Positions 1 through 64,000 of a stretch of 64,000 bases of DNA are shown one piece after another. This stretch comes from Raillietiella orientalis. Its lineage: Eukaryota. Position numbers and translations under genes: made by a program. Below the pieces are notes generated by a model. That model had not been told where the DNA came from. It did not search any database and saw only the letters and a program-made list of their open reading frames with translations. The number at the start of each line of letters is the position of its first letter. Within the stretch, counting starts at the first letter, position 1. The DNA is taken from contig JAYWIR010000035.1 of the NCBI GenBank assembly GCA_036172245.1, forward strand, positions 2,232,001 to 2,296,000, given 5' to 3'.

Positions 1-2891
1 GTAGTGGCTAGGCGTGTCCACTGGTCCTGGTCTTCCAGCACCTCCCCCACTGGACAGTATGGGGAAAGTTTCACGCAAAGGAGTTCCAAACGGGACACAT
101 CCTGTTGCGCTGCCCAGGACGATAAGGCTTCCTGCCTCCAGGCGTTGAAGTTCGTCTGCCGACAAGAGATCCACTCATGCTTTCCCAGAAGCGTGGCGAG
201 CTGCTTCAAAGGGAAGCCGAATCCTCTCTGGGCGCGCTCCGTACGCAGATGCAACGAACGTAGTCCGTCACCACCCGTGCTGCGCTGCAGCAGCAGCCGC
301 GCTGGAGCACACCAGGGAGTAGTCCAGAGCTGCGCACAAAGTGCCAGCATGCGGAACTGCACTAGCAGTCCGATCCGCTCCATCGTCAGGATGCCCAATC
401 CTGCATCCCGCCGAGGAGCCGCCAAGTCCTTCAGGCGTATACTGGACCTCGCCGGTCCCCACAGAACGTTACGCAACAGGCGTTGCGCCCGGCGCTTAGC
501 CGAGTAGGGAGGGGGACAAACAAAAAAGAGGGGACGGAGGAAGGAAGCAACGAAAATGTTCCACACGAAGGCCCGTTCCGACAGGAGAAACCTGCCGCCT
601 TGGAACGGGCCCAGAGCAGTCTCAGCCTTGTGAAGGCAGTCCGACCACGCTTCTGCTGGACAGAAGGCGCCCAAGGGAACGCCGAGGTACTTCAAGCACC
701 TGCCCGTGGGGATCCCCAGGCGGATCTAGTCGGACTGCCCCTCCCACGTAGAGCCAACCGGTACAACGGTTGATTCCGTCCTGTTCACGCTCAGGCCCGC
801 TGCCAGACGAATGAGCTCGAAGTAGTCCTCGACCCTGGACGCCTGGGTGGACATGGGTAGCAGCAGGAGAAGGTCGTCAGCATAGGCGGCCACAGCCGGT
901 GTTCCCGGGCAGGAGCTCGGCAGGTTGGCCAGCGTCAGCCTGTACGCCCTCAGCACCAACTCAAAGAAGATGCTGAAGAGCAGTGGGCTAAAGCTGTCTC
1001 CCTGCCTGATACCCCGCCGTATGAGAACACCGTACACGTGACGCCCGCTGAAAGAGATACAGCATAACGCGTGGCGCCAGCAGGAGCGCAAGTAGGCGAT
1101 GAGGTGCGTCGGGAGGCCTAGACGTCCCAGAAGCTCCAGAAGGAGGTCCTGGTTTACGCTGTCGAACGCTTTGCAGAGATCGACTGCGACCGCTAAGGCT
1201 CCCGGCGTTGCATCGTGCCTTGAACACCGCCGCTTTCCTTTGGTAGCGGCGATTTCGTCTGCCTGGCTCTGCTGCGCCACGCGCTGCTGCATCTCGAACC
1301 ATGTTCGCGCGAAGAAGAAATTCGCGTCCATGGACCGCCCCGGAACAGCATACGTCTGCTCCGGACTTACCAAGGACTCTGCGATTCTCCCCAGGCGCGC
1401 GACCCATAGCCTGAAGAGCAACTTGACGTCCGAATTCACCAATGTGAACGGACGCCAGTTGCTAAGGTGGCGCAAATCACCGCCTTTCGGCAGGAGGCGC
1501 ACCTTTGCTGAGCGGAAAGAAACGGGAACATCTCCCGTCTCACGCATCAGCGAGGAAAGGCTTAGCACCAGGGGGACGAGCTCCGCCGCGAAGCACTGAA
1601 AGAACTCCGCAGGCAGGCCATCCTCCCCAGGCGCCTCACGCCTCTTCAGGCCCGCTATGGCAGAAGATACTTCTTCCGTCGTGAAGGGCCAATCCAATCT
1701 GGCGCGTTTCTCCTCGTCGATAGCAGGGTTGCCCGTCGGAAGAAGCAGCTCGGAGAGACTGCGTTCCGTGGGCTCCTCCGCGTACAACGAGGAGTAGTAG
1801 CGCTTGACTACGCGGTGTGCTTCGGCTGCAGCCGAGCATTCGAGGCCAGCGTCATCGAGCAGACAAGCCGCTCCAGACTGCCAAACCTGGCGCTCGGCCC
1901 TGGCCTTATACTCCGCTAGACGCCGGACGTCCGGGCATCGTGAAAAGGTACGCGCCTGCAGATAAGGTCTGCTGTTCGCGACACCCTCTCCGAAGCTGCT
2001 TGGAAGCAGGTGCAAGGGGAACCGGCAGAAGAACTCGCGGACCGATCTTTTCAGATCGTCCCAGTCCTCGAGTTCAGAGATGGCGAAGCCCAGGAGGTGT
2101 TGGCGGAGATGCTCGGCCGCCTCCTAATTGCTAAGCCAGTCTGCCGGCAACCTCCAGACATTCATCGGAGGCCCTTTGCCAGGCGGGAGGAGCTCGAACT
2201 CCAGTCTAGGATGATCCGAAATCGCGGACAGCAGGCGCCCTCTCCGACCTACTCGTAAGAGCAAATGTTCATCGAGGAACGCATGGTCCGGCGATCTCTC
2301 CATCCCGGGCTCACCAGCAAGCAAGTTTTGCACGCGCACGGACGCGCATACCTCGCTCACCAGTTGCTTCTCCCTCAAGCGGCATCTCTCCTCTGTTAGC
2401 AGGTGGACGTTGAAGTCTCCTGCAAGGAGGTGCGCCACGTTAGGGCCGGAGTCAACGAGCCAGTGGCTGCGCAGGCCACCCAGGAATGCAAGTCGCTGGG
2501 CGTAATGCCGGCCGCCGCTCGGCTCGTAGATGTTCGTAACGACCAGGTCGATCGATTCGGACCACTTGAGGACAAGTTGGCCCACACGACCTTCCTCGTC
2601 GAAACAAACGTTGCGCACCACCTCCGCCACTCTGCCTCGGACGAGGAACGCGACTCCGCACGTGTGCGCGGAGCCTTGCCGCCAGTGTAGCGTCCCGCCC
2701 GCGCGCTCTTCCAGATCCGATGCCTGCCGTACGGACATGCTATGTATCTCCTGCAGCAGCACCAGATCGAACGCGCGCAAAGCGTCGGCTACCGTCCGCC
2801 TTTTGTCAGCATCACGTAGCCCGTTGACATTTCAACAGGCCACGCTGACGCGACGAGCGGACGCGAGTCCACGCTTCACTGCTGCGGACAT
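1..2891 (-). pseudogene. Family A ORF2 (APE endonuclease + reverse transcriptase), disrupted
   Basis: ORF 2124-2780 has LLQE/TNIYEP/AGDFN/SDH; ORF 726-2015 has PGEDG, VDLCKAFD, IRQGD, YADD; in-frame stops separate them. Confidence 0.9.
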
Positions 2892-2944
2892 GACGGCGTG
2901 CTCCTCGCCCCGTCCGGCGAGAAGTCAGCTGGTAGGAGAGCGGA

Positions 2945-4810
2945 TTAAGAAGCGGAATCGCTCCCGTTCGTCGCCACATCGCGCCCAGCTGAGTCCTGGG
3001 GGCCGAGGATCATCGCCTCGGTCTTCGTGCCGGAGCCGGAACCGACTCCTGCAACAGACTCGTGCTTTCGCAGTTTAGCCCGGTGCGCTACCGGCTTAAC
3101 CCATGATGCGCGCTTCATTTGTTTGCACTCGGACTCCACCTCGGAGTCCGAATGCCTAGCGCGAGACTTGGGTTTTGCCAGTCTCTTTTTGTTTCGGCAG
3201 GTGGAGGCTTGCCCTGCCCGCGCGGGGGTCGTCGCAGTCGCCAACGCAGCTTCCGGAGCTTTGGGTTCCGCAGCCGCCCTCTCGCGCGAAGCGACGGAGA
3301 CAGAGCACGCATCCGTAGTGCGTACCAGGGTACGCACCTTCTTCGGCGTGCTTCTCTTTTGCATCCCACCCACCTTAAGGATGGGGAATATTGAAGGGTC
3401 AACCTTCTTCTTCCCCTTTGTGGGCGTCCTGGAGACTCGAGTCCAGCCCGCGTCGGGGACGCCCTCTTGGGAGGCCGACGCCTCCCTCAATTGTTTGGCC
3501 GGAGATGCCGGCTCACGTTTCGCGCTCGCGGCGGGAGACGGCTCCGTCCCCGTTACGCACTGCACCTGCTCCTTAGCCGATGCGGGCGAAACGGCGGTCA
3601 TTGCCGTCGTCCCGCGAGGCGCTATTGCAGCCTTCGCTGCTCGTTTCTTCGGCGTGGAAGACGTGATCTCCACCGCCGTGGGAGGAGACTGCCGTTCAGA
3701 GGCAGCTCCGAGGGTACCGCGCACGGTTTCCCGTGTGCTCCGCTGGACGCGCAAGCGGACGCGGACGGTTCAGCAGCCTTGATTGAGTGCGTGCTCGCAC
3801 TCTTAGGCTGCTTCGAAGGGGGCAATATCCCCCCAGGGCGACGTGGCATCTTTACCGTCTGCGCATGTGTCTGGGATGGTGGCTTTCCTGAAGCAACCGC
3901 GCCCTTTTTCGCGGGATCGCCACTCGAAGATGCCCCGCCCTTCGCGCCGGATTTCTCCCGTGGCACAACGGGGGATCTTTTCGGCGCGGACGGGGTCGAT
4001 TGTTGGCGGCTTTTCGCCTCCCGCTTTCTCTTCAGCTCGGCGCCCTCTTTGATGACGTGGCCGAGCTGTTTACAATAGCGGCAGTTGCGTTAAGGGCACG
4101 TCCACGGACGGTGGCCCTCTGCACCGCAAATGCCGCAAGCCGGTCGCTGACCGTCAAATTTGAGGTGGACGATCGCATCGCCCACCTGCAAGTGCGGAGG
4201 CATTTGCCTCCTTTCCGCCATGGTGTCACGCGCCATGGCAAGTCCGCTGTGGAGAGATGCAATCCTTTTGATCGGATTGTCTGCTCTCAGCAGCGCGTGC
4301 ACCGTGGCGAATGCACTTAGTGCAGCGACGAGCACGCGATCGGGCGTGTCAACCTTGACGGCGGATAATCGGACCACGAACGACTGGTCCATGGCCGACG
4401 GGACGACCTCCTTCCCGCGGATATTTAGCGGGGTGCGGAGAAGGCGCTGGACTAGGGATGCCTCTTTGCAGTGCACCTCCCAGTGTCCGAGCGCGTTAAC
4501 CGGCCCGGAGGTCGTTTTGTCGGATTCCGACGTGCAAAAGCTCGTCCCACAAATTTTCTTCGACCCCGTCGGAAATAGAAGCACTCACCGGATAGCAGAG
4601 CGTAGGTTTGTAGCCATGGGCTGCATATGCCTGCAGCTCTGCTTCGTCGGGGGGTGCTCCGCTGGCTGCCGCCGCCTTGACGACAGCGGCGAAGCTTCTC
4701 GCCGGTGGCGAGACACAAGAATCAGAGGCGAAGCGGACATCTGGAGTAGAGTCTTCACTGCCAGTAGCAGCCTCCGCATCCATCTTTTGCTGCAGGGGCT
4801 CCGTGGACAT
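2945..4810 (-). pseudogene. Family A ORF1 (zinc-knuckle RNA-binding protein), frameshifted
   Basis: Pieces 4496-4843, 4090-4584 (CGICGAEGHRPWTCP), 3622-3966 and 2945-3754 lie in different frames. Confidence 0.8.
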
Positions 4811-4889
4811 CCCAGTGGACGCACTCGGGTGCACCACACACAAGAAGACGGAAAGGAATCACGCTGGAGGAGCAACGCAGAACACGTCC

Positions 4890-6355
4890 GTGCACCGTTG
4901 TCGTCGAGCGTATTCCCGCCATCGACGAATGCGGCGCTAAAGAACTCGCTGCTGCCCCTGCTCAACCCTCCGTTGACAAAGTCAACAAGGAGGGGAGCGA
5001 GGCGGCGGCGTCCTTCATCGTGCCCACGCTCGATGACGTCGTCTTCGAGCGCGCCGCGGAGGAGCTGGCTGCCTCGTTGCAGCCGGCCGCCCTCAAGGCT
5101 GGCAAGAAGGCCGTCAGGCGTCCGGCTCCCCCTCAGGAGTCGGCCACTTCCGACCCCGAGGTGAAGGCCGGAAACAGAGCATCCATCTCCTCGGCACCCC
5201 GCAAAAAGGCAGGACGAAAGTCCACAATGTCCCGGAAGATCGTCTCCCCCGACGAAGGGGAAGAGATAGCTTCCGGCTGCGAGGGTGCGATAAGCGTGGG
5301 AAACTCCCGGGACCCGTCGCCCGAGAGAATCCCACGCGCTGACACGGACGAGATGGAAGGGCTGGAGGCCGAGCAGGTGCCTTTGGTGCCTGAAGAGGCC
5401 TCGATCGCCATGGACATCCCGAACACCTGCCTCGCGGCAGGTGGTGTAGCGCCACCTTCCCAGCAATAAAGCCGGGAATCGCCTCCCGTCGTGGTCTGCT
5501 GATCGCCTGCTGGAACGCCAACGGCCTAAGCAACGACGGGAAGAGGCGTGACGTGGCCGCCACCCTGGCATTCTTCGACCTGGTGCTGCTGCAGGAGATC
5601 CACGTGATCTCCGTAGATCAAGCCGGGGAGATCGAACGGATCTCGGGTGGTCAGCTGCTGTGGCGCTGCGGTACCGCGAAATCTAGCGCTGTCGCATTCC
5701 TGCTCCGACCAGCCATCGAGGCCGCAATTAAGGACGTACGGTTTGATGACGCCGGTCGCGTCGGTCAGCTGACTCTCAGCTGGTTCGACTCAATCGACCC
5801 GGTCGTTACCAACCTGTACTCTCCTAGCGGTAAGGACGCGTTGAGGGCGAAAGCAAGAAGAGAATTCTACCTTGCCTTCGAACGCGATTGGCTGATCGAA
5901 GCAAGTGTTCGCAAGCGCACCTGATCGCAGGTGACTTCAACCTGCGCCTGCTTTCAGGTGCGCCGGATACACTGAACGACCGCGTCAACGAGTTGTGCGC
6001 GCAAATGCACACGTGCAACTTGCTGGCCGGAGATACGGACATGGAACGGAGCATCGATCACGTGTACCTTGACCAGCACCTATGCTCGCTCGTAAGCAGG
6101 CGCGGCAAGTTACCGTCCGAGCTGTCGGACCATGTTTGAATCGTGTTCGAAGTGCAACCGCGCGACAAGGGCCCCCCTTCGTCACTGTGGCGTCTGCCAG
6201 GGGACTGGCTGAAGTTCCCGGACCCGGTGGAACATCTCCGCGCGTTTTTACGGAACTTCAGGATGCGGACGCTTCAGGACTGGGACCGCTTCAAGCGGTC
6301 GGTCCAGGAGTTCTGCGACCGGTTCCCTTTGCATCGCCTACCTGCGGGATTTGGG
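4890..6355 (+). mobile_element. Family D element, middle part (ORF1 tail + endonuclease), interrupted by A on the left and C on the right
   Basis: ORF1 tail 5020-5469 (AAEELAASL); EN pieces 5553-5924, 5888-6139 and 6143-6355, ending at HRLPAGFG. Confidence 0.85.
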
Positions 6356-6570
6356 GTTGTCACCCGGGTACGCCCGGGGCGTTTATTGAAAGAACTCTGC
6401 ATAAAGGTGGTACGAGGCCCCACTAACGTTCCCACAACACCGGACCTGTTGGGACGCCGGGACGCAGCCCGGCGTGACGCTCCTCGGCATTGGAGGGGGA
6501 TAGGGATGAAAACAAAAAGAAAAATAAAGATAAGAAAAACAAAAAAAGAGTTTGGAGGGAGAGGAAGGGA

Positions 6571-9500
6571 TCACAATCCACTGGGAGGAGGGCCCATCCT
6601 TCGCAGGATGCCCTCCAGGTCCATCTTCATGCTTCCCAGATGGGGCCATCTCCCAGCTCTATGCATGAAGCAGACCGCATACGGGATGACATCCCTCGCG
6701 TTGGCATCCACTCCTTCGTCGCGAATGTCGCTCCAGGCCGCCACGATGCCCCGGATGCAGCAGAGGGCTGCGAGTGCTGCGGCGGGCTGCAGGGCGTCCC
6801 GCACGAAGAGGAGCCGAAGAACGACTCTGGGCGCGCTGCCCATTGGGAAACCGAGGGTCGTCCCGAACCGTTCCCACAGGGGTCGGAGGTCAGCACAGTC
6901 AACAAGTAGGTAGGGGAGCGAATCCCGCTCCCCGTACCTGGCACACTCAGGCCTTACACTTCCCCGCGTCCAGTGGAAGCGGCGCGCGTTGCAGGGTAGA
7001 CCCCAGTGCAACAGTAGCAGCGCCGAATCTTGCCACTTCAGGGGGAGAAGCCTGGATCCGATTAATATTGGCGGCCAATTCAGGTCATCCGTCGAAATGC
7101 CGAGCAGCTCACCCCAGCGACAAAGTCCACGCGGGAGGGCACTCGGGGACGTGGCATCTGCCAGTTCTCCCATGGTCCAACCGCTCATCTTCTTTTCCTT
7201 GCCTGCGATTCGGCAGGAGACCTGCCACTTTGGCTTGCGGCCACTGGTTAAAGCCCTTCGTAGGAAAGGCAGGGTCGAGGCTAGAGGGGTAGTCTCCGCC
7301 CACGTGCTCCTGGCGGGACACTCCAGAGTAGTCCGCAGTGTGCAGCAGGCGTTGGGCCCGAATAGCAGGCGGTTCCAGTCCGGGGAAGTCTGGAGGTTCC
7401 GCTTGGCCCACGTCGCAACGGATTCCTCCAGCCAGGCGGAGGAGTTGGCGGGGATGCATACCGTCCAGCCGTTGTCTCTCACCAGGGCTTCCATGCGCCC
7501 AAGGAGAAGGCCGCATCTTCTCACCTTCCTGCCGGAGCACAGAAGGTACGACGCGAGTCCATGCGTCCTGGACACACAGCTGGCGAAGATGCGGGCTGGA
7601 ACGCACCAAGGGGTGCTCCATGACTTTGCTGCGATGGCGAGGGTGCGCCAACGCAGCTGTATGTCCAGGCGCTCCAGCGTCAGGAGGCCGAGACCGCCGT
7701 CCCGACGAGGAGCACATAAGTCATCTAGAGGCACACGTGGCCTCCCGCTGCCCCAGAGGGCGATGCGCAGTAGGTCCTTGGTCCTCTTTTTAATGTCACA
7801 TGGGACGGGGCAAACAAAAAGCAGGGAGCGGAGGATGGGAGCCGCGAACGCGTTCCACACCGCGGCCCGTTCCGGCAGAAGGAACTTGCCTTCCAGGAAC
7901 GGGCCGATTGCCAATTCTACCTTTTGGAGACGACCTGACCAGGCTTCTGCGAGGCAGAAGTCCCCCAACGGGACACCCAGGTAGTTCAGGTACCTGTCCG
8001 CGGGGATCCCCAAGCGGATCCAGTCAGGCCGTCCGACCCACGTCGCACCCACCGGTACGACCGACGACTTCGCCTTGTTTACCCGAAGTCCAGTCCCACG
8101 ACTTAGCGGGTCGAAGAAATCCTCGACTGCGGCTGCCGGGGCGGACATGGGCAACATGAGCAGAAGGTCGTCGGCGTATGTTGCTACGGCGGGCGTTCCG
8201 GGGCACGAGCTGGGCAGGGCAGCCAAAGTCACCCTGTACGCTCTCAGCACCAACTCAAAGTAGGTGCTAAAGAGCAGGGGACTGAGGCTATCGCCCTGCC
8301 GTATGCACCGCTGCACCGGCACGCCGTACACCTGTTGGCTGTAAAAGCAGATGTTAAGGATGGCGTTGCGCCAGCAGGAGCGCAGGAAGGAGAGAAGGAA
8401 GGGTGGGAAGCCCATGCGACCCAGGAGATCCAACACTAGCTCCTGGTCAAAGCAGTCGAACGCCTTATGGAGATCGACCGCGATCGCTAGGGCCTCCTTC
8501 CCAGCCCGGGTGTCCATTCCCGGCCCAGCTGGCGGCCCCAAAGTGGGGTTGCCAATCTTTCCGCCAGTTTCATTTAGGCAGCGCTGCACATGGAACCATG
8601 TGCTGGCGAAGAACAGGTTGGCATCCATACTTCGCCCGGGAACAGCGTATGTCTGCTCCGGGCTAATTATGGAGTCTGCCACCTGTCCTAGACGCGAAGC
8701 CCACAGTCCAGCGACCAGCTTGGCGTCCGTATTCACAATTGTGATCGGACGCCAATTGCCTAGGGATCTGAGGTCTCCTCCCTTCGGCAGGAGCCTCACA
8801 CGGGCTGACCGAAACGAGGCGGGAACGTCGCCTTCGTCTCGGATCAGCCCGGTCAACTGGAGCACCAGGGGGGCCAGCTCTGTCGCGAAGCATTGAAAAA
8901 ATTCCTCAGGCAGGCCGTCCAACCTCTGGCGCCTTACGCCTCTTGAGCCTTTTAATACCGGTAGAAAAAGGCTCGTCGAGGCTGATCCTCACCTCCTCCC
9001 CTATTGCCTGGCCTCCATCCGGGAGCAGGAGCCGCGAGGCGTCCCGCTGTGGGGGTGCCCTAGCGTAGAGGGAGGAATAATAATGCCGCACGAGGTGCCT
9101 GATCGCGGGTGGGGCCGATCGCTCCCGGCCCAGGTCGTCCAGCAATCTGGCCGACCCGGATTGCCAGGCTTGGCGCTCGGCCCCGGCTCGATATTCGGCC
9201 AGGGGACGGACATTAGGGGTCCTCTTGTACCGGCGGGCCTGTAAATAGGCCCTATGGTTCCGAGCCCCCTCCCCAAATCCGGGGAACAGGCGGTGCAGGG
9301 GGAACTCCTCGCAGAACTCGCGGACCGACGCCTTGAAGAGGTCCCAATCTTTGAGACTGCGGAGGGTGACGCCTCTCAGGAATTCGCGAAGGTGTTCCTT
9401 CGCTCCTGAGAGCCGCATCCAGTCCCCAGGCAACCGCCACGCCCTGGCCGGGGGTCCTTTATCGCGCGGGCATACCTCGGCGATTAACCTGGAATGGTCC

Positions 9501-10156
9501 GACAGCGTCGACGCAACTTTTCCCCGTTTGCCGACCCGCGAGCACAGGTCTACATCCAGGAAGAAGTGGTCGATGCTGCGGTCCATTCCCCCCGCGTCCG
9601 CCAACAAGTTGCGCGTGCGCATGGCAGCGCACAACTCGTTGGCCGTGCGTTCTTGTGCTTCGGGCTCACCTGACAGCAGACGGAGATTTAAGTCCCTAGC
9701 TATCAAGTGTGCCTTCCGCACGTTCGTATCGGCCAGCCAGTCGCGCTTCAGGGTTTCCAGCAACCTGGTACGGTCTCTGTATCCCCCTTTCCCGCTTGGG
9801 GCGTACACGTTCGTGTCGATCAATTCGAACGAGTCGGACCAGCTGAGAATCAGCTGACCGACCCGACCGTCCTCATCGAAGCGTATGCCCTTCACGGCAG
9901 CGTCGATGGCCGGCTTTACGAAAAACGCGATCCCAAAGGTGTTGCGGGCGTTGCATCGCCAATACAGTCGACCCCCCGCGATCGTCTCGATCTCCTGGAC
10001 GTCTGCCGAGGTGATCACGTGGATCTCCTGCAGCAGGGCCAGGTCGAGCTCACGCAGGGTGTCGGCCGTATCTCGCCTGTTACCGTCGTCGCGCAGCCCG
10101 TTGACGTTCCAACAGGCGGCGCGAATCCGACGGCGACTGGCGAGCCCAGGTGTTAT
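6571..10156 (-). pseudogene. Family C ORF2 (EN-RT-zinc finger), frameshifted
   Basis: ORF 8906-10018 (NVYAP, SDH) and ORF 6571-8922 (VDLHKAFD, IRQGD, YADD, YLGVP). Confidence 0.92.
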
Positions 10157-12423: not shown

Positions 12424-12510
12424 CGGACACCAACGATGTTCCACACGAACACACACAAAGAAAAGACCGCTTTCTGTCGACTCGCTCGGGAGCTCAGGAA
12501 AAACACGTCC

Positions 12511-32450: not shown

Positions 32451-32454
32451 CAGA

Positions 32455-38372: not shown

Positions 38373-38379
38373 GCACTCG

Positions 38380-40683: not shown

Positions 40684-40690
40684 TCCGACT

Positions 40691-47805: not shown

Positions 47806-47825
47806 GCTCGACGCTCCAGAGTCTC

Positions 47826-49750: not shown

Positions 49751-49753
49751 CCG

Positions 49754-51238: not shown

Positions 51239-51255
51239 CGTTCTCCTTTGCCAGG

Positions 51256-52395: not shown

Positions 52396-54615
52396 GCCGA
52401 ATCCCCGGGGCAGACGTTGCACAGCGAAAAGTTCGCAAAACTCCCGGACCGAGTCCTTAAATAGGTCCCAATCCGCGAAACTCTGGAGTGTGACGCCTCG
52501 CAGGAATTCGCGATGATGTTCTTTCGCTACTCATAGACGCGTCCAGTCTACTGGCATACGCCAATCCCTGGATGGCGGTCCCTTGTCGCGCGGGCGCATC
52601 TCCAATAATAACCGGGAATGGTCTGACAGCGTCGATCCAAGTGTCCCTATTTTTCCGACCCGTGTGCACAGATCGTCGTCGAGGAAGACGTGGTCCACGC
52701 TGCTGAAAATCCCGCTTATTTCTGTGAGCAAGTTGCGCGCGAGCATGGCGGCGCACAACTTGTTGATCGTGTTCCCCTATGTTCCCGGCTGATCTTAGAT
52801 CCGGCGGACGTTGAAATCCTTCGCTGGCATATGCGCCTTTCGCACGTCCGTTTCCACCAGACATTCGCACTTCAAGGTTTCCAATTACGCGTTGCGCTTT
52901 TGGTATCCTTGTTTACCGCTAGGTGCGTACACATTGGTGACGATGAGGTCGACCGATTCGGATTATCTGAGAGTCTGTTGGCCGATTTCTCTGTCGTCCC
53001 CAAAGCGCATGCCCTTCACGTACGCATTAATGGCTGGCTTTAGAAACAACACGACCCCGCAGGTGTTGCGGGCGCCGCATCGTGAGTACAACCGCCCCCC
53101 CGCGATCGTATCGATCTCCTGGGCGTCTTTTGCTGTGATCACGTCTATCTCTTGCAAAAGCACCAGGTCGAAATCTTGCTGGGTTGCGGCTGTGTCCCGT
53201 CTGTTTCCGTCATCGCGCAGCCCGTTGACATTCCAACTGGCCGCGCGGATCCGACGGCGACAGGCGAGTCCAGGTGTTATCCCTGGGAACCTGGCGGTGG
53301 GGCTCCCGCCACCTTTTGGGGCGAGTCGCTGGACGGGGTTGGCGTCTTGCCCACCAACTCCCCATCCTGCTTACGTGCCGACGTCTCCGGCTGCTCGTGC
53401 GAAGGGGGTGTTGCTCGTACCTGTTGGCTCACATCCATTGGTGCGGGTGGTCCAGGTTCGGCGGTTTCAGGGAGCATTGCTGCCCCTGCTTACCCTCCTG
53501 CATTAAAGTAGCCTTCTCGTCGGCTTCCGCACATATGTGATGCCCGACTTGGGCTTCCACGCTGCCACCCTCTGGTTCCTCGTCCAGTGCATCCCCCTCG
53601 CGCGGAGGCGGAAGGCACCATCGGGGTTTCTGAAATTTTCGCTCCGCTTTCCGTGGTGATGCTTCAATAGAGGATGCACTTCCGGCCTCCCTATCCGACT
53701 CACCTGCGGAAGCCACTTTAACCGATGCCGGCCTACGTAACCCCTTTCGCGAAGGGTTCTTGCGTTCGGCAAGCGTTGCCGCAAGCTCCTCGGCGGCCTT
53801 CTCGAAGGCTGCGTCCTTGGTTTCGGCGATGTTGTCGTCCGGCTGGCCCTCTCCGCAAGCAGGGGGTGGGTTTTTGCGCGCATTCGTCGCGGCGGGAAAA
53901 TCGATCGAAGCCGTATCGCCTCCGGTGGTGTCGGCTGGAACGTGACTGCGCTCCAGCGTAACCGTGCATTTTCGGAGAGTTTTTACGCGCGAAACAGGAT
54001 TGAGCTTATGTTCCGGCCGCTGCCTTTTCTTTTTTCTTCGAAACATGCTTGTCCTTTTTCTCTTTTTTGGCTTTGACTAGCTGGAGCCCTGTTCTCCCTC
54101 TGCGGTTTCGGGAAGATTTTTCTCCGATGCCGCGCTTGCAGCTTGGGTTATTGGCAGCTTTTCTCGGCCAGTTTCACGGTTTCCCAATTTCTCTTTCCCC
54201 GCGCGTTTCCCTTGCGCCTTTTTGGCGGCCGAGGAAATTGGGGTGGGGCGTTTAGGGCACACGCGACGGACGTGTCCCTTTTCCCCGCACAAGTAGCATA
54301 CGATGTTTGGGCACCTCTTTCGGATGTGTCCGACCGCATCGCAGTAGTGGCAATACCGTGGTTTGACCGCATACCAGACGTCTATTGGTTCTTCCGCGGC
54401 CTCAAGCTTGTAAGGAAGCTTCGCTTGGTCTTTTGGGGTTACACGTGCCTCGGCGAGGCCCCCGAAGTGGCGTCCGTAGCCCTCAAATATTGTGGGTTTC
54501 GGCTACAGCGGGTGTACGTCCCCGTATTTACGTAGCTCACCTTTGACGGCAGTGCGCGTCAGGCGCTTACATATTCCTGTGAAGTGGACCACTACCGAGT
54601 GGTCCATTGACACAA
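52396..54615 (-). mobile_element. Family C-type degenerate element: 5'-truncated ORF1 + EN up to GFG
   Basis: Knuckle remnants near 54256-54360; AAEELAATL; EN fragments 52963-53163 and 52531-52758; ends QRLPRGFG. Confidence 0.82.
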
Positions 54616-54639
54616 GGAAGAAACAGTCCGACATTCGTC

Positions 54640-56745
54640 GTTATCATCTGGGTACGCCCGGGGCGTTTATTTGTAAACTCTACATGCGTGGTACGAGGCT
54701 CCACCACGGCCGCAAACACAGGACCTGTCGGAACACCGAGACTCAGCCCGGCGTGACACTCTCCGACAACAAAGGCGGATAAGGATAAGACAAAAATAAT
54801 AATCAAAAATGGAAACAAACAAAAAGAAGTTGGAGGGCAGAGAAGGGATCACTCGTCGCTGTAAGGAGGGCCCATCCGTCGAACGAAGCCTTTGAGGTCT
54901 GTCTGCATATTCCCTAGTTGGCGCAATCGGACAGCTCTTTGCAAAAAGCGTTGGGCATAAGGAATGACATCCCTCGCCTGTGGACCCACTTCTTCGTTGT
55001 TGGCGTAGCTGCATGCCGCCACGATGCAACAAGCGCAGCACAAGGTTGCGATGGCTGCGGCTGGCTGCAGTACGTCCTTCACAAAGAGGGGCCGCAGAAC
55101 TTCTCTAAGGGTGCTGCCCGTAGGGAGCACGAGGGTCATTCCGAGCCGTTCCCAAAGTTGTCGGAGGGCAGCACAATCCACAATAAGGTGGGGGTGCGAC
55201 TCCCGCTCCCCACACCTGGCACACGCAGGATCAACAGCTCCTCTCGTCCAGTGGAAGCGGCGCGCGTTGCAGGGTAGACCCGAGTGCAACAGGAGACACG
55301 CCGACTCTTGGAACATGAGGGGCAGGATCTTGGATTCTTTCATCACCGGGAGCCACTTCAGCTCATCCATGGGGATGGCGAGCAGCTCGCCCCATCTTTC
55401 TAATCCTCGCGGCTGGACGCTCAGGGTCGTGGCGTCGGCCAGTTCTCCTGTTGTGCAGCCGCTGATCAACTTCTCGCGTCCCTCGATGCAGCAGGAGACT
55501 TGCCACCTTGGCGTCCGGCTGCTGTGAAGTGCCCTCCTCAGGAAGGGCAGCGCCGTAGCTAGGCAGGTCGTCTCTGCCCACTTGCATCTTGCTCGACTCA
55601 TCAGGAGATCCCGCAGCGTCTAGCAAGCGTAGGGGCTGCATCGGAGACGATTCTACGTTTCGTGGCTGCTCTGGTTAACCACTGCCCACGTTCCAATTTT
55701 CTCCTCCATGCCAGCGGGGGAGTTGGCGGGCAGCAAACAATCCAGCTGTTCTCCTTGGCCAATGTTGCCATGCGCCCGAGCAGTAGGCCGCATCTTCGCA
55801 ACTTCAGGTAACGGCTCAGAAGAAAAGACGCGAGTCCATCGCACCGGGACACACGGCTGGCCAGGAGGCGGGCTGGAGTGCACCAAGGGGTGCTCCACAT
55901 CTTCGCTGCGATGGCGAGGGTTCGCCAGTGCAGCTGCTTCTTCAAGCGCTCCAGCGTCAGGAGGCCAAGACCGCCGTCCCGACGCGATGCGCACAAGTCC
56001 TTCAGAGGGACTCGGAGCCTCCCTTTGCCCCAAAGGGCGATGCGGAGGAGTTGCTTTGTCCTCTTCTTTGATTCCACGGTGGGGGGGCAAACAACAAGCA
56101 AAAGGCGGAGGATGAAGGCCGCGGAGGCGTTTCAAACGGCGGCCCGTTCCAGCAAGTGAAACTTGCCTTCCAGGAACGGGCCGAACGCCGTCTCGACTTT
56201 TTGGAGGCAGCTGGACCACGCCTCCGCAGGGGAGAAGTCCCCTGACGGCACACCGAGGTATTTGATGCACCTCACCGTGGGATCCCCAGACGGAACCAGT
56301 CCTGCTGCCCTGCCCACGTCGCTCCTACTGGCACCAGCGACGACTTCGTCCTGTTACCCTGTAATCCGGCCCCACGACTGAGCAGGTCGAAGAGATCTCC
56401 GACCGCCTTTGCCGGGGTGGACATTGGCAACAAGAGCAGAAGATTGTCGGCGTACGCTGCTACGGCGGGCGTGCCAAAGCACGAGCTCGGCAAGGAAGCC
56501 ACAGTCATTCTGTACGCTCTCAGCATCAACACAGCGTAGGTGCTAAAAAGCAGGGGGCTGAGGGTATCTCGCTGCCTTATGCCCCGCCGCACCGGCACGC
56601 CATACACCTTGTGACCACTGAAAGAGAAGGTAATCATCCCATTCCGCCAGCAAGAGCGCCGGTAGGAAATCAGGGTGGGTGCGAAGCCCATGCGACCCAG
56701 GAGCTCCAAGAGGAGTTCCTGGTCTACACAGTCGAACGCCTTGTG
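54640..56745 (-). mobile_element. Family C element, 3' part (downstream of the B insertion)
   Basis: Starts HKAFDCVDQ; YADN; CARCGERESHPHLIVDC; 3' UTR matches 21089-21300. Confidence 0.88.
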
Positions 56746-56756
56746 CGTTCTAGGGT

Positions 56757-59700
56757 GGACGTGTTTTTTCGGTTCTCCTCGTGCCAGGAAGTCTCCCCCA
56801 GTGCAAGCGTCGTGTGGTTCGGTGGTCGATCTGGCAGCGATGCCTGACGCGACCACCAGGGATGGCCAGGGGGCAGCGGCAACGCCGCTCCCAGAGGCGC
56901 TGGAGAGCCAGGGGGCGGCGGCAACGTCGCCCCCAGAGTCGATGGAGGTGGGGGCATCCGCCCCCACAGAATCGTTCCCCGCTGCAGCGCGGGCGTGGAG
57001 CGCCGTTGTGTCGGCGCCATCGCCTGCAGCCGCGGCGGAATTGTCGGCCTATGTAGAGGAAGGGTACAACCCCTCAGTGTTCTACAAGGTAGGCAATTTA
57101 TATTCTATAGAGAGCGCGCGCGCCTTCTCGAATGGCATGCGCGATCTCGATGTGAAAGAGAAGGAGCTCAGCGCTATGACCATCCGCAGCGGGGGTCTGC
57201 ACGTTGATGTCATCTGCAAACATGCAGAGCTGTCCCAACGACTGCTTAAAACCCCCGTTGTGATGGGGACGCGCAGGCTCCTCCCCACTACGGCGGACCG
57301 CAGCATGGTGGTCCACCTGTTAGGCGTCACCGCGCGAATGCGCAAAGAACAGGTACGCGCCGCTTTGGAACAGTTCGGAACGGTCCACGCGCAGTGGACG
57401 AAAGTAAGTCCTTTCGAGGACTACACGGGGCTGCAACACGGCCTCACTGCTGCGCGCGTGACCGTTCGGGAGGGCTGCACTCTTCCCCACAAACTGGTGG
57501 TCGAAGGCGAAACCGTCGACCTCTGGTATGTGGGGAAGCCGAAATACTGTGGCTTCTGCAATGCGTCGGGCCACCTCAAAAAGAGGTGTCCCAATGTGCA
57601 GTGCCAAGTATGCGGCACAATGGGCCACACGAGGAAGGTGTGCCCAAAAGCAGCAGTGCGGGTGGTTTCCAAGAGAAGCCTTAAAAAGCACGCCCGGCTT
57701 TCTGCAGAAAACGCTGGCGGCGAAAGCTGCCGCGAAGGTTGTGCCACCCGCGCCCAAGACCCAGGCCGCACCCGAGACCCCGGCGACCAACGCCGAAAAA
57801 GTTGAGGGAGCCGGCCTGGAGACTGGGTGGCAAGTGGCAACGGCCAAAAAATCAAAGAAGGAGAGGAGGATGGAATAGAAAATCGCCTACCAACAGAAGA
57901 AGAAAGAGCAGGGTAGCGCGATAATTAAAGAGTGCAGCGTCGTTGTCGAACAAGTTCTCGATGTTGCCGAACGGTGCCGGAAAGAACTCGCCGCTACCGA
58001 CGACCTCCCCTCTGTTGACACAGTCAACAGCGAGGGGAGCGAGCCGGCGGCGGCGTCCGTCATCGACACCACCATCGATGACGTAGCCTTCGCGCGAGCC
58101 GCGGAGGAGCTGGCAGCCTCGTTGCAGCCAGAATTCTCCAAGGCTGGCAAGAAGGCCGTAAGGCGTCCGGCCTCCCCTCAGGAGTCCCCCACTTCCGACC
58201 CCGAGGTGGAGGCCGGATGCGCAGCCTCCGTTTCTACGGCACCGCGCAAGAAGGCTGGACGTAAGTCCACAAAGCCAAGGAAGCTCGTCTCCCCCGTCGA
58301 AGGGGAAGAGATGGCTTCCGCAAGCGAGGGTGCCATGAGCGTGGGAAACTCTCGGGACCCGTCGTCCGAGAGACTCCCACGCGCGGACACGGAGGGGATG
58401 GAGGGGGTGGAATCCGAACAGGTGCCTCAGGTGCCTGAGAAGGCCGAAACCCCCATGGACATCATGCCCGCCTCGCAAGGAGGGCTCCCCCACACCTTAA
58501 TCTTCCCAGCAGTAATGCCGGGAATCTCCTCCCGCCGTCGTCTGCGCATCGCCGTTTGGAACGTGAACGGCATGACAGACGCCGGCAGGAGACGAGACAT
58601 ATCCGCCCTTCTGGAGTCCTACGACCTTGCGCTGCTGCAGGAGATCCACGTGATCTCTGCAGAACAAGCGCAAGAGATCGAACGGATCTGCAGAAAGCAG
58701 CTCTGGTACAGGTGTGGGAGAGCAAAAAGTTGCGGTGTCGCCTACCTGCTTCGGCCAGCCGTCGAGGCCGCGGCTCGGGGCGTGCGGTTCGACGATCACG
58801 GTCGTGTCGGCCAGCTGACTCTCAGGTGGTCCGATTCGATCGATCTGATCGTCACGAACGTGTACGCACCGAGCGGCAAGGACCCGATCACCAGGAGGGC
58901 GAGGAAAGAGTTTTTCCTTGCCCTCCGGCGAGACTGGCTGACCAAAGCAGGCGTGCAGTATGCCCATCTGGTTGCAGGCAATTTCAACGTTCGCCTGAAA
59001 CCAGATGGGCAGAATCCTGAGCGTGACCTGGTCAACGAGGTGTGCATGGCGGTGCACACCTGTAATTTGTTGGCCAGTGCACCGGGGATGGAAGACAGCA
59101 TTGACCACGTGTTTCTTGACGAGAACCTGTGACCTCGCGTGGGCAGGCCCGGCAAGTTACCGTGCGAGCTGTCCGACCATCGCCCTCTAGTCCTCGAGAT
59201 CCATCCGCGCGACAGGGGCTCCCCCTCGTCAGCGTGGCGACTCCCAGGGGACTGGCTGAAGCTCCCGGACACGGCGGAACATCTCCGCACGTTCACACGG
59301 AGCTTTAGGCTGCGGACACTCCAGGATTGGGACCGCTTCTAGCGGTCGGTCCAGGAGTTCTGCGACCAGTTCCCTCTGCACCGCCTACCTACGGGTTTTT
59401 AGACCGGGGTCCGTAACGAACGAGCCTACCTGCAGGCCTGTCGTTACGCCACGACCCCCGACATCCGCAAGCTGGCGGAATACAAAGCGGGAGCCCAGAG
59501 GCAAGCCTGGCAGTCCGGATCGGCGAGCTTCCTGGACGATCAGGGCCAGGAGCACTCTGCACCTGCCCAAATCCGCGGCCTGCTGCGGAGTTACTACTCC
59601 TTCCTGTATGCCTTGGCACCTCCAAAGAGGAACGTCTCACGACTCCTGCTTCCGGAAGGCGCTCCAGCGATCGGGGAGGAGCAGAGAAAGACCCTCGACG

Positions 59701-62310
59701 AGCCTTTCACGATGGACGAGATCCTCTCGGCCATCGGAAAGCTCAAGAGGCGAAAGGCTCCAGAGGAGGACGGTTTGCACGCGGAGCTTTATCAAACTCT
59801 CGCGGCTGAGCTTACCCCCCTGGTACAGCAACTCAGCTTGCTGATACGCAAAACAGGTGACGTTCCCGCCTCGTTTCGTTCGGCAAAGGTGCGGCTCCTC
59901 CGGAAGGGAGGAGACCTAAGGAGCATGAACAACTGGTGTCCCATCACAATATTGAATGCGGACGCCAAGTTGATGGCTAAGGTTTGGGCAGAGCGTCTGG
60001 GACGGGTTGCCAACATCTTCATCATCCCGGAACAGACATATGCTGTTCCCGGGCGAAGCATGGAGGCGAACCTGTTCAACGCTCCCACCTGGCTAGAGCT
60101 CCAACATGAAAGGAGATTGGTGCGCAGCCGGAATTCCGGTGCGTACGCCGGCAAGGAGTTGAATGGTCGGTTGGGGGAGGGAGCCCTTGCGGTCGCAATC
60201 GACTTGCCAAAAGCATTCGATTGCGTCGACCAGAATCTCTTTCTGGAACTTCTGGAACGCTTGGGCTTCCCGGCCTCATTAGTAACCTATCTGCGCTCCT
60301 GCTGGCGCGATGCGATCATCAATGTTACTTTCAGCGGGCAGACCGTGCACGGCGTGCCGGTGCGGCGTGGGATCCGGCAGGGAGACAGCCTGATCCCCTT
60401 GCTCTTCAGTACCTACTTTGAGTTGGAGCTAAAAGCGTACAGGGGAACTCTGGCGCACCTGCCGCACGACTGTGCCGGTACGCCGGCCGTTTCAGCATAC
60501 GCGGACGACCTTCTGCTGCTGCTCCCTATGTCCACCCCGGCTGCGGCGGTCGAGGAGTTCTTCGACCTGCTGCATCGGGGAACCGGACTTACGGTGAACA
60601 GGGCGAAGCCGTCCGTGATGCCAGTTGGTGCGGCGTGGGCAGGGCAGCAGGACTGAGTCCGTTTGGGGATCCCCACGGTGAGGTACTTCAAGTACCTTGG
60701 TGTGCCGTTGGGGGACTACTCCCCTGCGGAAGCGTGGTCCGGCTGCATCCAAAAAGTAGAGACGGCTATCGGCCCGTTCCGAGGCGGCAGGTTTTTCCTG
60801 CCTGAACGGGCCGCGGTTTGGAACACGTTCGCGGCTCCTCTCCTCCGCTCCCTGCTTTTTGTTTGCCGCCACAGAGAGGATCAAAAAGCGGACGAAGGAC
60901 CTCCTCCGTATCGCCCTTTGGGGCAACGGGAGGGCCCGAGTTCGCTTTAAGGACTTGTGCGCTCCTCGTCGGGATGGTGGTCTGGGCCTCCTGACGCGGG
61001 AGCGGCTGGAGCTTCAGATCCAGTTCCGCTTTTCGGCACTCTTTCCAGAGTTGTGGTGCACCTGTTGGTGCGTCCCTACACGTCTCCTACTCCAGCAAGC
61101 CACCGGCAAGTCGGGACTGACGTCGTTTCTTGCACTACGTCGCCGCGTCAGCCGATGCGGAATGCAGCTACGGAGGGTGGCTGCGCTTTATCGGAAAAAC
61201 CCAGGATTGCTCACCTGTCGCCCGTTTGACGGTAGTGCCTGGTTGCTGGAAACCGTTCAAAGGTGGGGACAGTTCGGCATGCAACGCTCCCAACAGGAAC
61301 GAAGGTTCCTGTCTGGGGGTTACAGAAGTTGCACGCTCCGCGAGATCCTGGAGGATCCAAAGAAGAGAGCGTGGGCAGGAAGAACCCCCCTCGCTGCTGC
61401 GCTGCCCTCCCTGATGGAAGATCTGGACAGCGATGTTGCGGCGAAGTGGGTGGTTACAGAAACAATCTCCGGAAAGGAGAAGAAGATAGGAGAGTGGAAG
61501 ACGGGCCAGTTAACAGACGCTGCGACCCCGAGTACGCCTCCCAATGGACTTCTGCGCTGGGGCGCGCTGCTCGATGTTCCCATTGAACATCTGAAGTGGC
61601 CCCCGGTGCTCATGAACACTTCCGCCCTCCCCTTAAAATGGCAGGAGTCGGCTATCCTGTTGCAGCACTGGGGACTCCCCTGCAACGCCCGCCGACACCA
61701 CTGGACCTGGGGAGCGGTGGACCCAAATTGCGTTAGGTGTGGGGAACGGGAGTCCCTCCCCCAACTGCTAGTGGATTGTTTTGCCCTTCGGCCCCTTTGG
61801 TTTCGCTTTGCCGCGGCCATCGGAATCCCCTGCGGCAACCCCAGGGACGCACTGAAAGCCCTCTTCGTTGCCGACGCCCTTCGGCCAGCTGCCTCGTTAG
61901 CAGCTTGGTGCTGCCTACGCGGGATCGTCACCGCTTCGAGCAAGGCTACGGGAGGACAACGCGACCAGAGTGCCATCCAGCACGCCTCCCAGTTCCTGAG
62001 GAGGGCGTCCCGATGGCCCCACCTGGATCCAGGAATACAGAAAAAGCTTGCCGGCATCCTGCAAAGGATGCAACGGCCCCACCAGCAACTGTGATCCCCT
62101 CCCTTACCCTCCCAACTTTTCTTTTCTTTTTTGTTTTGTTTTTTGTTTTCCCCCCTTCCCCCTGCCGCCGTGGTGGACCGTACCCGTCTTCGAACCGGTG
62201 ACCCGGCAGGCTCTGTGTTTCTTCGTGCGTGGCTGGAGCAATGGTCCAGCCACCGCACGTCTTTGTAAAAGTTTATTTTACAATAAACACCCCGGCGAAA
62301 TCCGGGTGAA
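56757..62310 (+). mobile_element. Family B full-length element with target-site duplication
   Basis: 5' GGACGTGTTTTTT; ORF1 56840-58515 frameshifted; ORF2 58515-62094 with stops (WNVNG, YADD, CVRC); 3' AATAAACACCCCGGCGAAATCCGGGTGAA; flanked by AGTCG(A/G)ACGCCTTGTG. Confidence 0.93.
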
Positions 62311-63563
62311 AGTCGGACGCCTTGTGGAGATCAACTGCAAGAGCTAGGGCCCGCTTCCCCGCCCGGGGGTCCCTTTTCAGCCCGGCTGTTGGCCTTAATG
62401 TGGGGTTGCCGACATTCCCTATCCCTTTCTTGTCTTTTCTCTGCAGGTGCACCCTTGTGCTTGCGAAGAAGAGGTTGGCATCCATACTTCGCCAGGGAAC
62501 AGCACAAGTCTGCTCCGGGCTAATTTCGGATTCTGCCACCTGCCCCAGACGTGAAGCCCATAGCCCTGCTATTAACTTAGCGTCCGTATTCACGATCGTC
62601 ATCGGACGCCAGTTCTTTCAATCCCTGAGGTCTCCCCCTTTCGGAAGGAGCCTCACTCTGGCTGACCGAAACGAGGCGGGAACATCGCCTTCGTCTCGGA
62701 TCAGCCTTGTCAGCTGAAGCAACAGGGGTGCCAGCTCTTCCGCGAAGCTCTGAAAGAAGTCCGAGGGCAAGCAGTCTTCCCCTGGAGCTTTTTGCCTCTT
62801 AAGCCTTTTGATACCGGCGAGAAATTCGCCTGTGGTAAAAGGCTCGTCGAGGCTTTCCAACTACTCCTCCCCTATTGCCAAGGCGCCATCCGGAAGCAAG
62901 CGCCGAGAGGCGTCTCAATCGGGGGGCTCCCTGGCGTAAACGGAGGAATAAAAACTCCGCACAAGATGCCGTACCGACGCCGGGGACGAACATTCCGGCC
63001 CTGGTCGTCCAGCAAGCTGGCCGACCCGGATTGCCAGGCTTGGCGTTCGGCCCCGGCGCGGTACTCGGCCAGGCGACGGACATTAGGGGTTCTCTCGTAC
63101 CTACGAGCCTGTAAATAGGCCCGATGGTTGCGAGCACCCTCGCCGAATCCGGGGGGCAGTGGATCCAGGGGGAACTGCTCACAGAACTCGCGGACCGATT
63201 CCTTAAAAAGGTCCCAGTCCTGGAGTTTCCGGAGCGTGACACCTCTCAGGAATTCGCGAAGGTGTTCCTTCGCACCTCAGAGTCGCATCCAGTCCCCCGG
63301 CAAACGCCAATTCCTGGATGGCGGTCCCTTGTCGCGAGGCCGCATCTCGAAAATTAACAGGGAATGGTCCGACAACGTCGACGCAACCCTTCCCCGTTGG
63401 CCGACCCGTGAACACAGGTCAGCGTCGAGGAAGACGTAGTCGATGCAGCGAACCATTCCCCTCTCACCCGCGAACTAGTTGCGCGCACGCATGGCGGCGC
63501 ACAACTCGATCATCGCGTTCTCTTGTGTTTCTGGCTCACCTTTTAGCAGACGGAGATTGAAAT
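62311..63563 (-). mobile_element. Family C element, 5' part (EN FN motif to RT motif A); continues at 56745
   Basis: ORF 62273-62602 ends ALAVDLHKA; colinear with 23190-24430. Confidence 0.88.
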
Positions 63564-64000
63564 TTATCACGCAGTCACGCCGGGGCGTTTATTAATAATA
63601 ATAAACTGGTCAGGGACAATGTCCTTAACCAACAGAACGACAGAGAACATAGAAAAATTACCGGCACGCAGGCCTGGTAAACAAACCGCTCGCAGCGTGG
63701 AGGGAATGAGGGGACACAAACAAAAATGTAAAACAGGAGGGAAGGGTAACGGGTTCTTGGTTAGGCTCCGTACTCACGGGGATTTAAACGATGAGCACCT
63801 AAAAGGTTCCGGAGCCTATGGGGACGCGTGTGCAAAAAGAAAATACAAAATTAGTTTCTAGAGGGTAGGGCAATGATCACCGGGTTGGCCGCTGCTGAGG
63901 GTGTGTAAACCGGCGGTGTATTGCGGCGAGATTCCTTTTTGTCTCCTCTGTCAAATGAGGCCATCTAGCGGATGCTCCCATGTAGAAGGATGCTTTGCTG
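63564..64000 (-). mobile_element. Family E 3' end (runs off window)
   Basis: Near-identical to 15778-16210 (offset 47786). Confidence 0.88.

Follow-up and report, generated by a model that had tools for sequence, protein, structure and literature searches.

The 64,000 nucleotides of Raillietiella orientalis analysed here (assembly GCA_036172245.1, contig JAYWIR010000035.1, positions 2,232,001 to 2,296,000; hereafter the window, from which all of the evidence comes) form a gap-free nest of L1/Tx1-like long interspersed nuclear elements (LINEs), with an apurinic/apyrimidinic (APE) endonuclease (EN), a reverse transcriptase (RT) and a CCHC first open reading frame (ORF1), that fall into six families of one clade. 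Our reading, to which we give a probability of roughly 75%, is that this LINE-only nest was built by site-specific target-primed reverse transcription (TPRT) of the six related families, and it is possibly a centromere-like cluster. Site-specific, orientation-fixed TPRT into the coding sequence of other copies is well supported for family C, and it is supported for family D by two tandem events at a single locus and for family E by two or more events. A preliminary description of the window had seen a network in which each family targets a conserved coding motif of another. All the junctions that it listed are true boundaries between two LINE pieces, and for three families (C, D and E), with orientation constant within each class, nested insertion at specific sites is real; "each targets another family" is too tidy, since C also entered a C-family copy and once landed off-target in an ORF1.

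The 3' end of C directly follows the (G/D)FG codons of its target at 6355 (GGATTTGGG), 21088 (GATTTCGGC), 28641 (GGTTTCGGC) and, on the other strand, 52396 (GGATTCGGC). As the preliminary description had it, C sits at this motif in all four places, and these are independent targets from three families. The site lies 74 codons past the SDH motif of the EN, and C is always inserted antisense to it. One copy, C0, is a clean full-length insertion, with its target resuming at 12512 and GGGATTTGGG duplicated as an exact 10-bp target-site duplication (TSD), and the matching empty site exists in a contig of a public sequencing run (X1) that joins 6352 to 12567, i.e. a D-like copy with an uninterrupted GFG region and no C insertion. 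A stretch of 10 nt, AGATGTCGGC, separates C2 (5' end) from C3 (3' end), and nine of these nucleotides match the GFG site of another target (T1); they are not C2 sequence, since T3l, C0 and F read TGGGAAG... there, and we read C2-AGATGTCGGC-C3 as the trace of a rebuilt target that was hit again. Including this tandem re-hit there are five GFG junctions of C, in four target copies of three families, and five of the six C 3' ends follow the GFG site or its 10-nt remnant. The tandem junction (32452-32461), like the C end at 54640 and the end of an F-type element at 36515, was absent from the earlier list. Twelve element copies retain the GFG region and four of these are occupied, among them the C-family copy T3l; there is no self-immunity, since the empty copies, including C1, C2 and C4, read the same GGATTCGGC. 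In B, also unoccupied, the GFG region reads GF-stop, a decayed target site.

Both 3' ends of D (15437 and 47825) run, in antisense orientation, into one and the same 14-nt sequence, AGACTCT[A/G]GAGCGT, with which a C-family copy encodes TLQS; this 14-mer is specific to the C family, being present in C2 and different in the D, B, A/E and F-type copies. At 15437 the end of the D-family copy T0 is followed by AGACTCTAGAGCGT and then by further C-family sequence. At 47825 nothing but AGACTCTGGAGCGT separates the end of D1 from the 5' end of G, a 97% twin of the 5' part of T0, and the TLQS duplication matches at 13 of 14 positions. D1 followed by a full-length D at the same site, with a 14-nt duplication, reads as two tandem D hits. 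The proposed insertion of D into C at TLQSL is upheld at 15437, whereas the junction at 47811, with only 14 nt before the next D element, is a tandem junction and not D-into-C with target on both sides.

All three 3' ends of E (15778/9, 24431/2 and 63564/5) stand in sense orientation at GDFN codons, the flank beginning (A)ATTTCAATCTCC ((A)ATTTCAATCT), with a duplication of about 7 bp, and an E 5' end at 38380/1 is preceded by GGAGATTTCAA; both the three 3' ends and the 5' side had been recognised before, and they represent at least two events. In C0, which is unoccupied at this position, the GDFN codons (9690-9700) read RDLN (GGGACTTAAAT), again a decayed target site. A contig of run X1 contains an E copy (14 differences in 511 nt) that ends at 18470-18473 as Ea does, joined to sequence on the opposite strand that resembles the stretch after GDFN; this end may mark a recurrent breakpoint or a strain without T1.

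In the mechanism that we propose, the element machinery, most likely the APE endonuclease together with neighbouring regions of ORF2, would nick one strand of a specific 10-20-bp sequence within the coding sequence of other copies: after (G/D)FG for C, after TLQS for D and inside GDFN for E. The nicked 3'-OH would then prime synthesis of complementary DNA (cDNA) at the 3' end of the element, and cleavage of the second strand 7-15 bp away would give the target duplications. Truncation at the 5' end and sloppy 5' joins are common, and a rebuilt target could be hit again, producing head-to-tail tandems separated by one target duplication. The sequence itself shows how the junctions are built, their duplications, and that the events recur and are independent; that the endonuclease determines the specificity is what we infer. 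The pieces of the window are as follows (^ marks the junction).

1 to 4889, minus strand: A copy 1, 5' end at 4889 and 3' end beyond the window; 97.3% inverted duplicate of A'
4890 to 6355, plus: T0 left (D family), from the ORF1 site to the GFG codons, ending GGATTTGGG^
6356 to 12511, minus: C0, full-length C, antisense at the GFG of T0; ORF1 457, EN 432 and RT 805 amino acids; TSD at least GGGATTTGGG
12512 to 15437, plus: T0 right (D family), to the T0 3' end
15438 to 15778, minus: P5, a C-family fragment of 341 bp, bordered by the TLQS site that D hit and the GDFN site that E hit
15779 to 18473, minus: Ea, E family, 3' end at the GDFN of P5
18474 to 21088, plus: T1, F-type EN family, 5' part up to the GFG/DFG codons, GATTTCGGC^
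21089 to 24431, minus: C1 3' part, from its 3' end (DFG of T1) to GDFN
24432 to 27660, minus: Eb, E family, 3' end at the GDFN of C1
27700 to 28641, plus: T2l, F-type EN family, from about the ORF2 start to the GFG codons, GGTTTCGGC^; left border approximate
28642 to 32451, minus: C2, 5'-truncated C, at the GFG of T2l
32452 to 32461, plus: 10-nt GFG target remnant AGATGTCGGC, between the C2 5' end and the C3 3' end
32462 to 33596, minus: C3, 1.1-kb 5'-truncated C, 3' end adjoining the 10-nt remnant
33597 to 36515, plus: T2r, a distinct F-type family, RT to 3' end, ...GGGTGAAAAA
36516 to 38380, minus: E2, the 5'-most 1.9 kb of an E element, whose ORF1 has two CCHC knuckles; adjoins the GDFN of F with its 5' end
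38381 to 40690, minus: F, 5' portion of a C-family copy, extending from the 5' end as far as GDFN (GGAGATTTCAA); may be the 5' half of C1
40691 to 40901, minus: G fragment (D family ORF1), twin of 4890-5100
40902 to 46674, plus: A', full-length A, antisense in the ORF1 of G
46675 to 47810, minus: G 5' part (D family), to the G 5' end
47811 to 47824, minus: 14-nt TLQS target duplication between the D1 3' end and the G 5' end
47825 to 49745, minus: D1, 3' 1.9 kb of a D-family element, 3' end at the TLQS 14-mer
49754 to 51253, minus: T3r, 98.9% copy of part of T2r
51254 to 52395, plus: C3', 98.9% copy of C3, 3' end at the GFG of T3l
52396 to 54639, minus: T3l, C-family copy, ORF1 to the GFG codons, GGATTCGGC^
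54640 to 56745, minus: C4 3' part, 3' end in the ORF1 of T3l after ...ACATTCGTC^, off-target
56746 to 62311, plus: B, full-length, antisense at the HKAFD of C4; 15-bp TSD
62312 to 63564, minus: C4 middle, HKAFD to GDFN
63565 to 64000, minus: Ec, E-family 3' end, at the GDFN of C4; continues beyond the window

Self-comparison, together with tblastx against full-length B and against A', assigns the whole window to LINE pieces, and the GC content is 0.53-0.64 along its entire length. Two inverted segmental duplications are present (1-5100 versus 40691-45780, 97.3%; 32457-35096 versus 49754-52400, 98.9%), whose borders coincide with element termini, namely the C1 5' end and the C3 3' end plus 5 nt. 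C0 (6,156 bp) exceeds B, A' and C1+F in length by about 500 bp because of an internal tandem duplication of 515 bp with 82% identity (10536-11050 and 11054-11568), located between its ORF1 and EN region.

There are 14 element 3' ends in the window (six of C, three of E, two of D and one each of A', B and the F-type), and every one adjoins another LINE copy, as in the nested clusters of Zepp and ZeppL. A poly(A) or A-rich 3' tail is typical, though not universal, in the L1 clade; poly(A) was found at none of the 14 ends, which therefore carry neither the tail typical of L1 nor the (A)n tail of the Zepp type. All 14 instead have AATAAA(C), which is able to pair with an upstream GTTTAT, and 12 have a potential CCCGG...CCGGG hairpin followed by a family-specific tail of 4-13 nt. 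The 3' untranslated region of T2r (36400-36480) ends in an A/T-rich, low-complexity stretch that is unusual in a window of 55-63% GC. Elements begin G(G/A)ACGTGTTTTT, and six 5' ends of five families (12511, 40690, 40902, 56746, 47810 and 38380) carry G(G/A)ACGT(G/T)T(T/C)TTT, preceded by 0-11 extra bases; the 5' end of T1 (18474) is without this motif.

Four insertions at one position and in one orientation, out of about 11,000 states (5.6 kb on two strands), exclude coincidence, leaving duplication as the only serious alternative. For the C copies we compared 850 bp of target beside the junction with the adjacent 1,050 bp of insert, obtaining the following identities.

C0 and C1: target 65.2%, insert 76.5%
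C0 and C2: target 63.1%, insert 71.4%
C0 and C3': target 61.6%, insert 69.3%
C1 and C2: target 74.6%, insert 70.1%
C1 and C3': target 62.9%, insert 69.2%
C2 and C3': target 62.7%, insert 90.8% (Fisher p = 1e-49)

We regard the last pair as decisive: near-identical C copies sit in unrelated targets, and the identities of target and insert are decoupled. The four GFG targets fall into three EN groups, and dN/dS is 0.27-0.32 among the C copies (with codon-position counts of 147/116/271 for C0-C1) and 0.33-0.43 among their targets. Such purifying selection on inserts as well as targets indicates that the copies diverged as active lineages and not as dead duplicated DNA. The C copies also reach to different points at their 5' ends, C0 being full length, C2 truncated where ORF2 starts and C3 1.1 kb long, and the 3' flanks of C1 and C4, which start right at the end of the element, are not alike. 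The C insertions are thus separate events, and we consider it quite unlikely that each family-target pair goes back to one ancestral insertion that was repeated by segmental duplication or composite retro-copying and then decayed. This alternative is true for A, as discussed below, and C3/C3' is likewise a 98.9% copy; moreover, the close pairs C1-C4, Ea-Eb and T0r-D1 have a dN/dS of about 0.6, with codon-position counts not distinguishable from the uniform pattern of neutral change (p = 0.08-0.22). Ea and Ec, with 92.4% identity in the flank and 94.7% in the insert and no difference between the two (p = 0.18), may be one copied event. Against the same explanation for Ea and Eb, their divergence is strongly uneven (RT 6%, flank 11.5%, 3' untranslated region 26%; heterogeneity p = 2e-20), which does not fit a uniform decay of one duplicated insertion, and the sequences therefore support at least two events behind the three E junctions at GDFN. 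Reduction of every family-target pair to one ancestral event, once duplicates are collapsed, was what the preliminary description had said would refute it. The recurrence of C (through its decoupled identities), of D (through its tandem) and of E (with its two or more events) survives such collapsing; that of A does not.

In family A, the full-length A' (40902-46674) splits the ORF1 of a D-family copy beside its C-T-V-V-V codons, with a clear duplication of 7 bp. The junctions claimed for A at ORF1 CxVVV are both real but represent one event because of the 97% segmental duplication, since the junction at 4890 lies in 1-5100, which is the inverted 97.3% copy of 40691-45780 including 210 bp of flank. 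As had been proposed, B (56746-62311) interrupts a C copy within its HKAFD codons, and its target duplication of 15 bp has a single mismatch (14 of 15), but this too is one event, and seven further copies carry the HKAFD site GCGTTCGAC empty. The ORF1 of E2 is interrupted close to its end by the F-type 3' end (36515), after AAATTCGAC(GGGG). This site is not a conserved motif, since hardly any alignment to A' can be made there (32% over 43 residues), and in this respect too the proposed scheme is over-tidy.

The strand that would prime cDNA synthesis ends in TTCGGC^ for C at T1, T2l and T3l and in TTTGGG^ at T0, in GTCGGC^ at the C3 remnant, TTCGTC^ at the off-target C4 and TTCGAC^ for B, and for the F-type in TTCGAC followed by GGGG. 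C and B therefore have a TTCGNC^ nick core in common, to which the F-type can be added only if the four further bases are counted as tail. The core is absent at D (...CAGAGTCT^), E (...TTGAAATT^, on the target antisense strand) and A (...GTCGTCG^). A common core makes these targets look like context variants of one nick preference, and together with the three families, its own included, that C hits, it indicates that the partitioning of targets was in part over-read. One may consider that no long family addresses exist at all, and that a short nick preference (TTCGNC^ and similar) acts while chromatin or tethering confines integration to the LINE cluster, the recurrent motifs being simply the commonest good short sites. 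Apart from the C ends at T1, T2l and T3l, the off-target C4, B and the F-type carry cores of this kind, B and F rest on one event each, and a passage on ZeppL in Chlamydomonas, where one strain has it inserted between genes, makes it able to land there (10.1101/2025.03.28.645958). We nevertheless find this explanation improbable: although TTCGGC occurs 71 times and TTCGAC 47 times in the window, five of six C ends use one homologous GFG position, the D and E sites lack the core, and the occupied T0 site reads TTTGGG^. Furthermore, of 24 sites matching the 9-mer G[AG][AT]TT[CT]GG[CG], those homologous to GFG are occupied in 4 of 9 cases and the others in 0 of 15 (p = 0.012), so C needs more context than the core.

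Annealing of an RNA tail to the target has been proposed for some ribosomal DNA (rDNA) and telomere LINEs. By analogy, a transcript could read a few bases into the downstream target, its tail then annealing to the nicked homologous site, and an element would inherit its address from its previous insertion site. An observation in favour of this is the 98.9% inverted copy (49754-52400 of 32457-35096), which ends exactly at the C 3' end plus 5 nt and is truncated at its other end relative to T2r: C3 and C3' have five target bases (TCGGC) in common past the element end. This inverted copy may have arisen when a read-in transcript that ended at the C3 3' end was retro-copied into the GFG of T3l, or else by conversion between C copies. 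Element/target borders are, in addition, ambiguous by 1-7 nt at the D and E junctions. The common tail is merely 5 nt, however, the last 6 nt of the C copies vary, and both the off-target C4 and the TTTGGG site of T0 would pair poorly, so RNA guidance seems a rather remote prospect. As for the inverted EN piece next to C 3' ends, twin priming was considered and rejected, since the piece lies beyond the 3' end and not at the 5' end, and T0 resumes after C0.

Several observations weigh against site-specific TPRT as the builder of the nest. One of the six C ends (C4, 54640) is off-target, in the ORF1 of T3l after ...ACATTCGTC and not at GFG, and A, B and F are represented by one event each. Ea and Ec co-diverge, as do C1 and C4 with their E inserts, which, with the near-neutral dN/dS of about 0.6, means that some E junctions may be copies of one event. 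The hairpin at the 3' ends is conserved, 83% of cells being paired, but has no support from covariation (a double change in one of five pairs; 206 of 500 shuffles score as high), and the CCCGG/CCGGG stem was absent from the RNAalifold prediction. At several elements the sequence on the 5' side is not a continuation of the target hit on the 3' side: the C1 5' end (40690) abuts G at an ORF1 position that is the border of the 97% inverted duplication, the D1 5' end abuts T3r, about 820 bp of E is absent between Eb (27660) and E2 (36516) around the T2 insertion, and C3' is flanked by different families, T3l (C family) and T3r (F-type). The latter two were also considered as parts of one element, which was rejected, T3l being 87% identical to C2 in the EN region and T3r about 70% in the RT. 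Deletions of target at the 5' join and the two inverted duplications can account for the mismatched 5' sides, but deletions or rearrangements have to be invoked, and everything comes from a single 64-kb window. These mismatched sides and duplications, along with a passage reporting that ZeppL arrays in Chlamydomonas change by unequal exchange (PMC9977147), could also suggest that the mosaic is an assembly artefact or the outcome of ectopic recombination between homologous copies. We think this highly improbable, since most junctions join opposite strands at non-homologous positions and carry target duplications as well as complete 5' and 3' termini, which neither misassembly nor recombination between copies of 65-75% identity would create.

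The elements themselves have long stop-free frames on both strands with matches to Exo_endo_phos (PF03372), RVT_1 (PF00078) and, weakly, CCHC knuckles in Pfam. PF03372 and PF00078 were found in ORFs of C0, T1, A' and B, and the RT additionally in A, Ea, C1 and Eb. ORF2 has an N-terminal APE-type endonuclease followed by the RT, as in the L1 clade. The CCHC matches in Pfam are weak (E = 0.0045-0.0086, below cut-off), and two C-X2-C-X4-H-X4-C knuckles can be read directly in the E2 ORF1 (36448-38040, minus strand), a frame of 530 amino acids with a long Lys/Ser/Ala-rich tail that has no Pfam family at E <= 0.01. As in the L1 clade, ORF1 lies upstream of ORF2, and its zinc-knuckle type is that of plant and algal L1s. 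The best match in PDB is human L1 ORF2p (RT E = 1.5e-33), ahead of R2 (1e-14), and for the endonuclease it is L1-EN (E ~1e-9); the top language-model cluster of the C1 RT is automatically named "Transposon TX1 ... family" (score 0.97), which serves as a lead only.

Domain identity matrices give the RT groups {A, Ea, Eb}, {C0, C1, C2, C4}, {T0r, D1, B} and {T2r, T3r}, and the EN groups {A, Eb}, {C0, C1, C2, F, T3l, C4, P5}, {T0l, B} and {T1, T2l}, which correspond to the previously named families A/E, C, D/B and F. D and B are 85% identical in the RT, yet use different sites, TLQS and HKAFD. In a tree of 29 rows (five window ORFs, namely C0, C1, Ea, A and B, and 24 of 62 protein-search hits, with no labelled Tx1 reference among them) the five window ORFs group with a metagenome protein, P0001, in one clade (SH-aLRT 100) whose stem is long, at 1.78 changes per column; the tree does not settle the relationships of this clade to other L1-like groups or to the fish, Chara and Phytophthora sequences. 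P0001 is the sole close relative among 5.8 billion protein clusters (65% to C1, other matches <=30%) and nests within the window clade, beside B, so the radiation is present in at least one environmental sample. A second protein search, restricted to proteins of 1480-4225 amino acids, added nothing, and no Coccomyxa or Chlamydomonas protein was among the 62 and 12 protein matches, which is weak evidence. The shared 3'-end pattern had no match in metagenome contigs or in prokaryote genome contigs, and a protein-profile scan of metagenome contigs found 51 loci, all distant (20-41% identity, plus one stretch of 28 residues at 64%). One sequencing run, X1, came up with 0.08 of the sampled words, and no RNA run came up; 727 contig pieces of X1 aligned to the window, 30 of them at >=99% identity and 455 below 90%.

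If these patterns are extended beyond the junctions, one can imagine six or more sister LINE families forming a closed "ecosystem" in which constrained EN, linker and RT codons, those of other families and their own, are the only landing sites. An insertion would spare host genes, kill a competitor and recreate a target, addresses would diverge between close relatives, and the families would together build and renew a gene-free, possibly centromeric, array. We offer this broader picture tentatively, as a possibility about which we are more doubtful than confident. Were the pattern of the window to hold genome-wide, nature would have run an experiment on the ways in which endonucleases of APE-type LINEs acquire new sequence specificities, with related enzymes having different short addresses side by side, which would be useful for understanding and engineering site-specific integration. 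It would also be a clear case of transposons competing with transposons rather than with the host, the target being unable to mutate away without loss of function, and would suggest how LINE-only arrays, e.g. algal centromeres, grow and turn over without gene damage.

Several known systems resemble parts of this arrangement, and the earlier remark that no described case was known with this many partitioned targets went too far, given that Zepp/ZeppL and CNL1 insert into copies of their own kind and that the rDNA is divided up among R-elements. In the literature on Zepp/ZeppL, Tx1 and sequence-specific and self-nesting elements without long terminal repeats we found no account of multiple LINE families that have codon-level sites within each other, although the original Zepp papers may describe a site preference of Zepp itself. 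Known targets of the Tx1 group are small RNA genes, repeats or a DNA transposon and, to our knowledge, not the coding sequence of sister LINE families, as they are in the window. The window elements share with that group (Tx1L/Tx2L and relatives) an APE-type, L1-clade machinery and sequence-specific insertion, a passage on the Tx group calling it "target-specific" (PMC3747384), and the precise 3' junction that characterises Tx1 is found here for C, D and E, which recur at one nucleotide position and in one orientation in independent targets. The rDNA guild (R1, R2 and further R-elements) likewise consists of several families with precise sites of their own in one multicopy constrained sequence, with tandem and truncated copies (see also PMC1919474 and PMC4370867). 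The safe haven of that guild is a host gene array, whereas in the window it is the LINEs themselves, so that an insertion disables a competitor; moreover R2 uses a restriction-like endonuclease and the window elements an APE-type one. CNL1 of Cryptococcus neoformans is similar in that it reportedly prefers insertion into its own copies in arrays, but, unlike the window families, it is R2/MoTeR-like, subtelomeric and a single family, and its sequence specificity is described as undefined (PMC12810828).

In architecture the window resembles Zepp of Coccomyxa ("Chlorella" C-169) and ZeppL-1_cRei of Chlamydomonas, which relevant passages describe as centromeric L1 LINEs that form nested, LINE-dominated clusters by insertion into existing copies and are frequently 5' truncated, Zepp being GC-rich (61%) (PMC8226300, PMC3446292). 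A further passage has Chlorella centromeres mix several transposable element families (PMC11005252). In contrast to the window elements, (A)n tails are given for Zepp as well as L1-1_CR in Table 3 of PMC3747384, ZeppL is 8.3 kb long (10.1101/2025.03.28.645958) as opposed to 5.6-6.2 kb, the passages on Zepp report no codon-level target sites, and its hosts have one or two families per species where the window has six. Thus, it appears from these comparisons that the cluster is a variant of a known system, Zepp-like self-targeting with Tx1-like sequence specificity, multiplied over six sister families.

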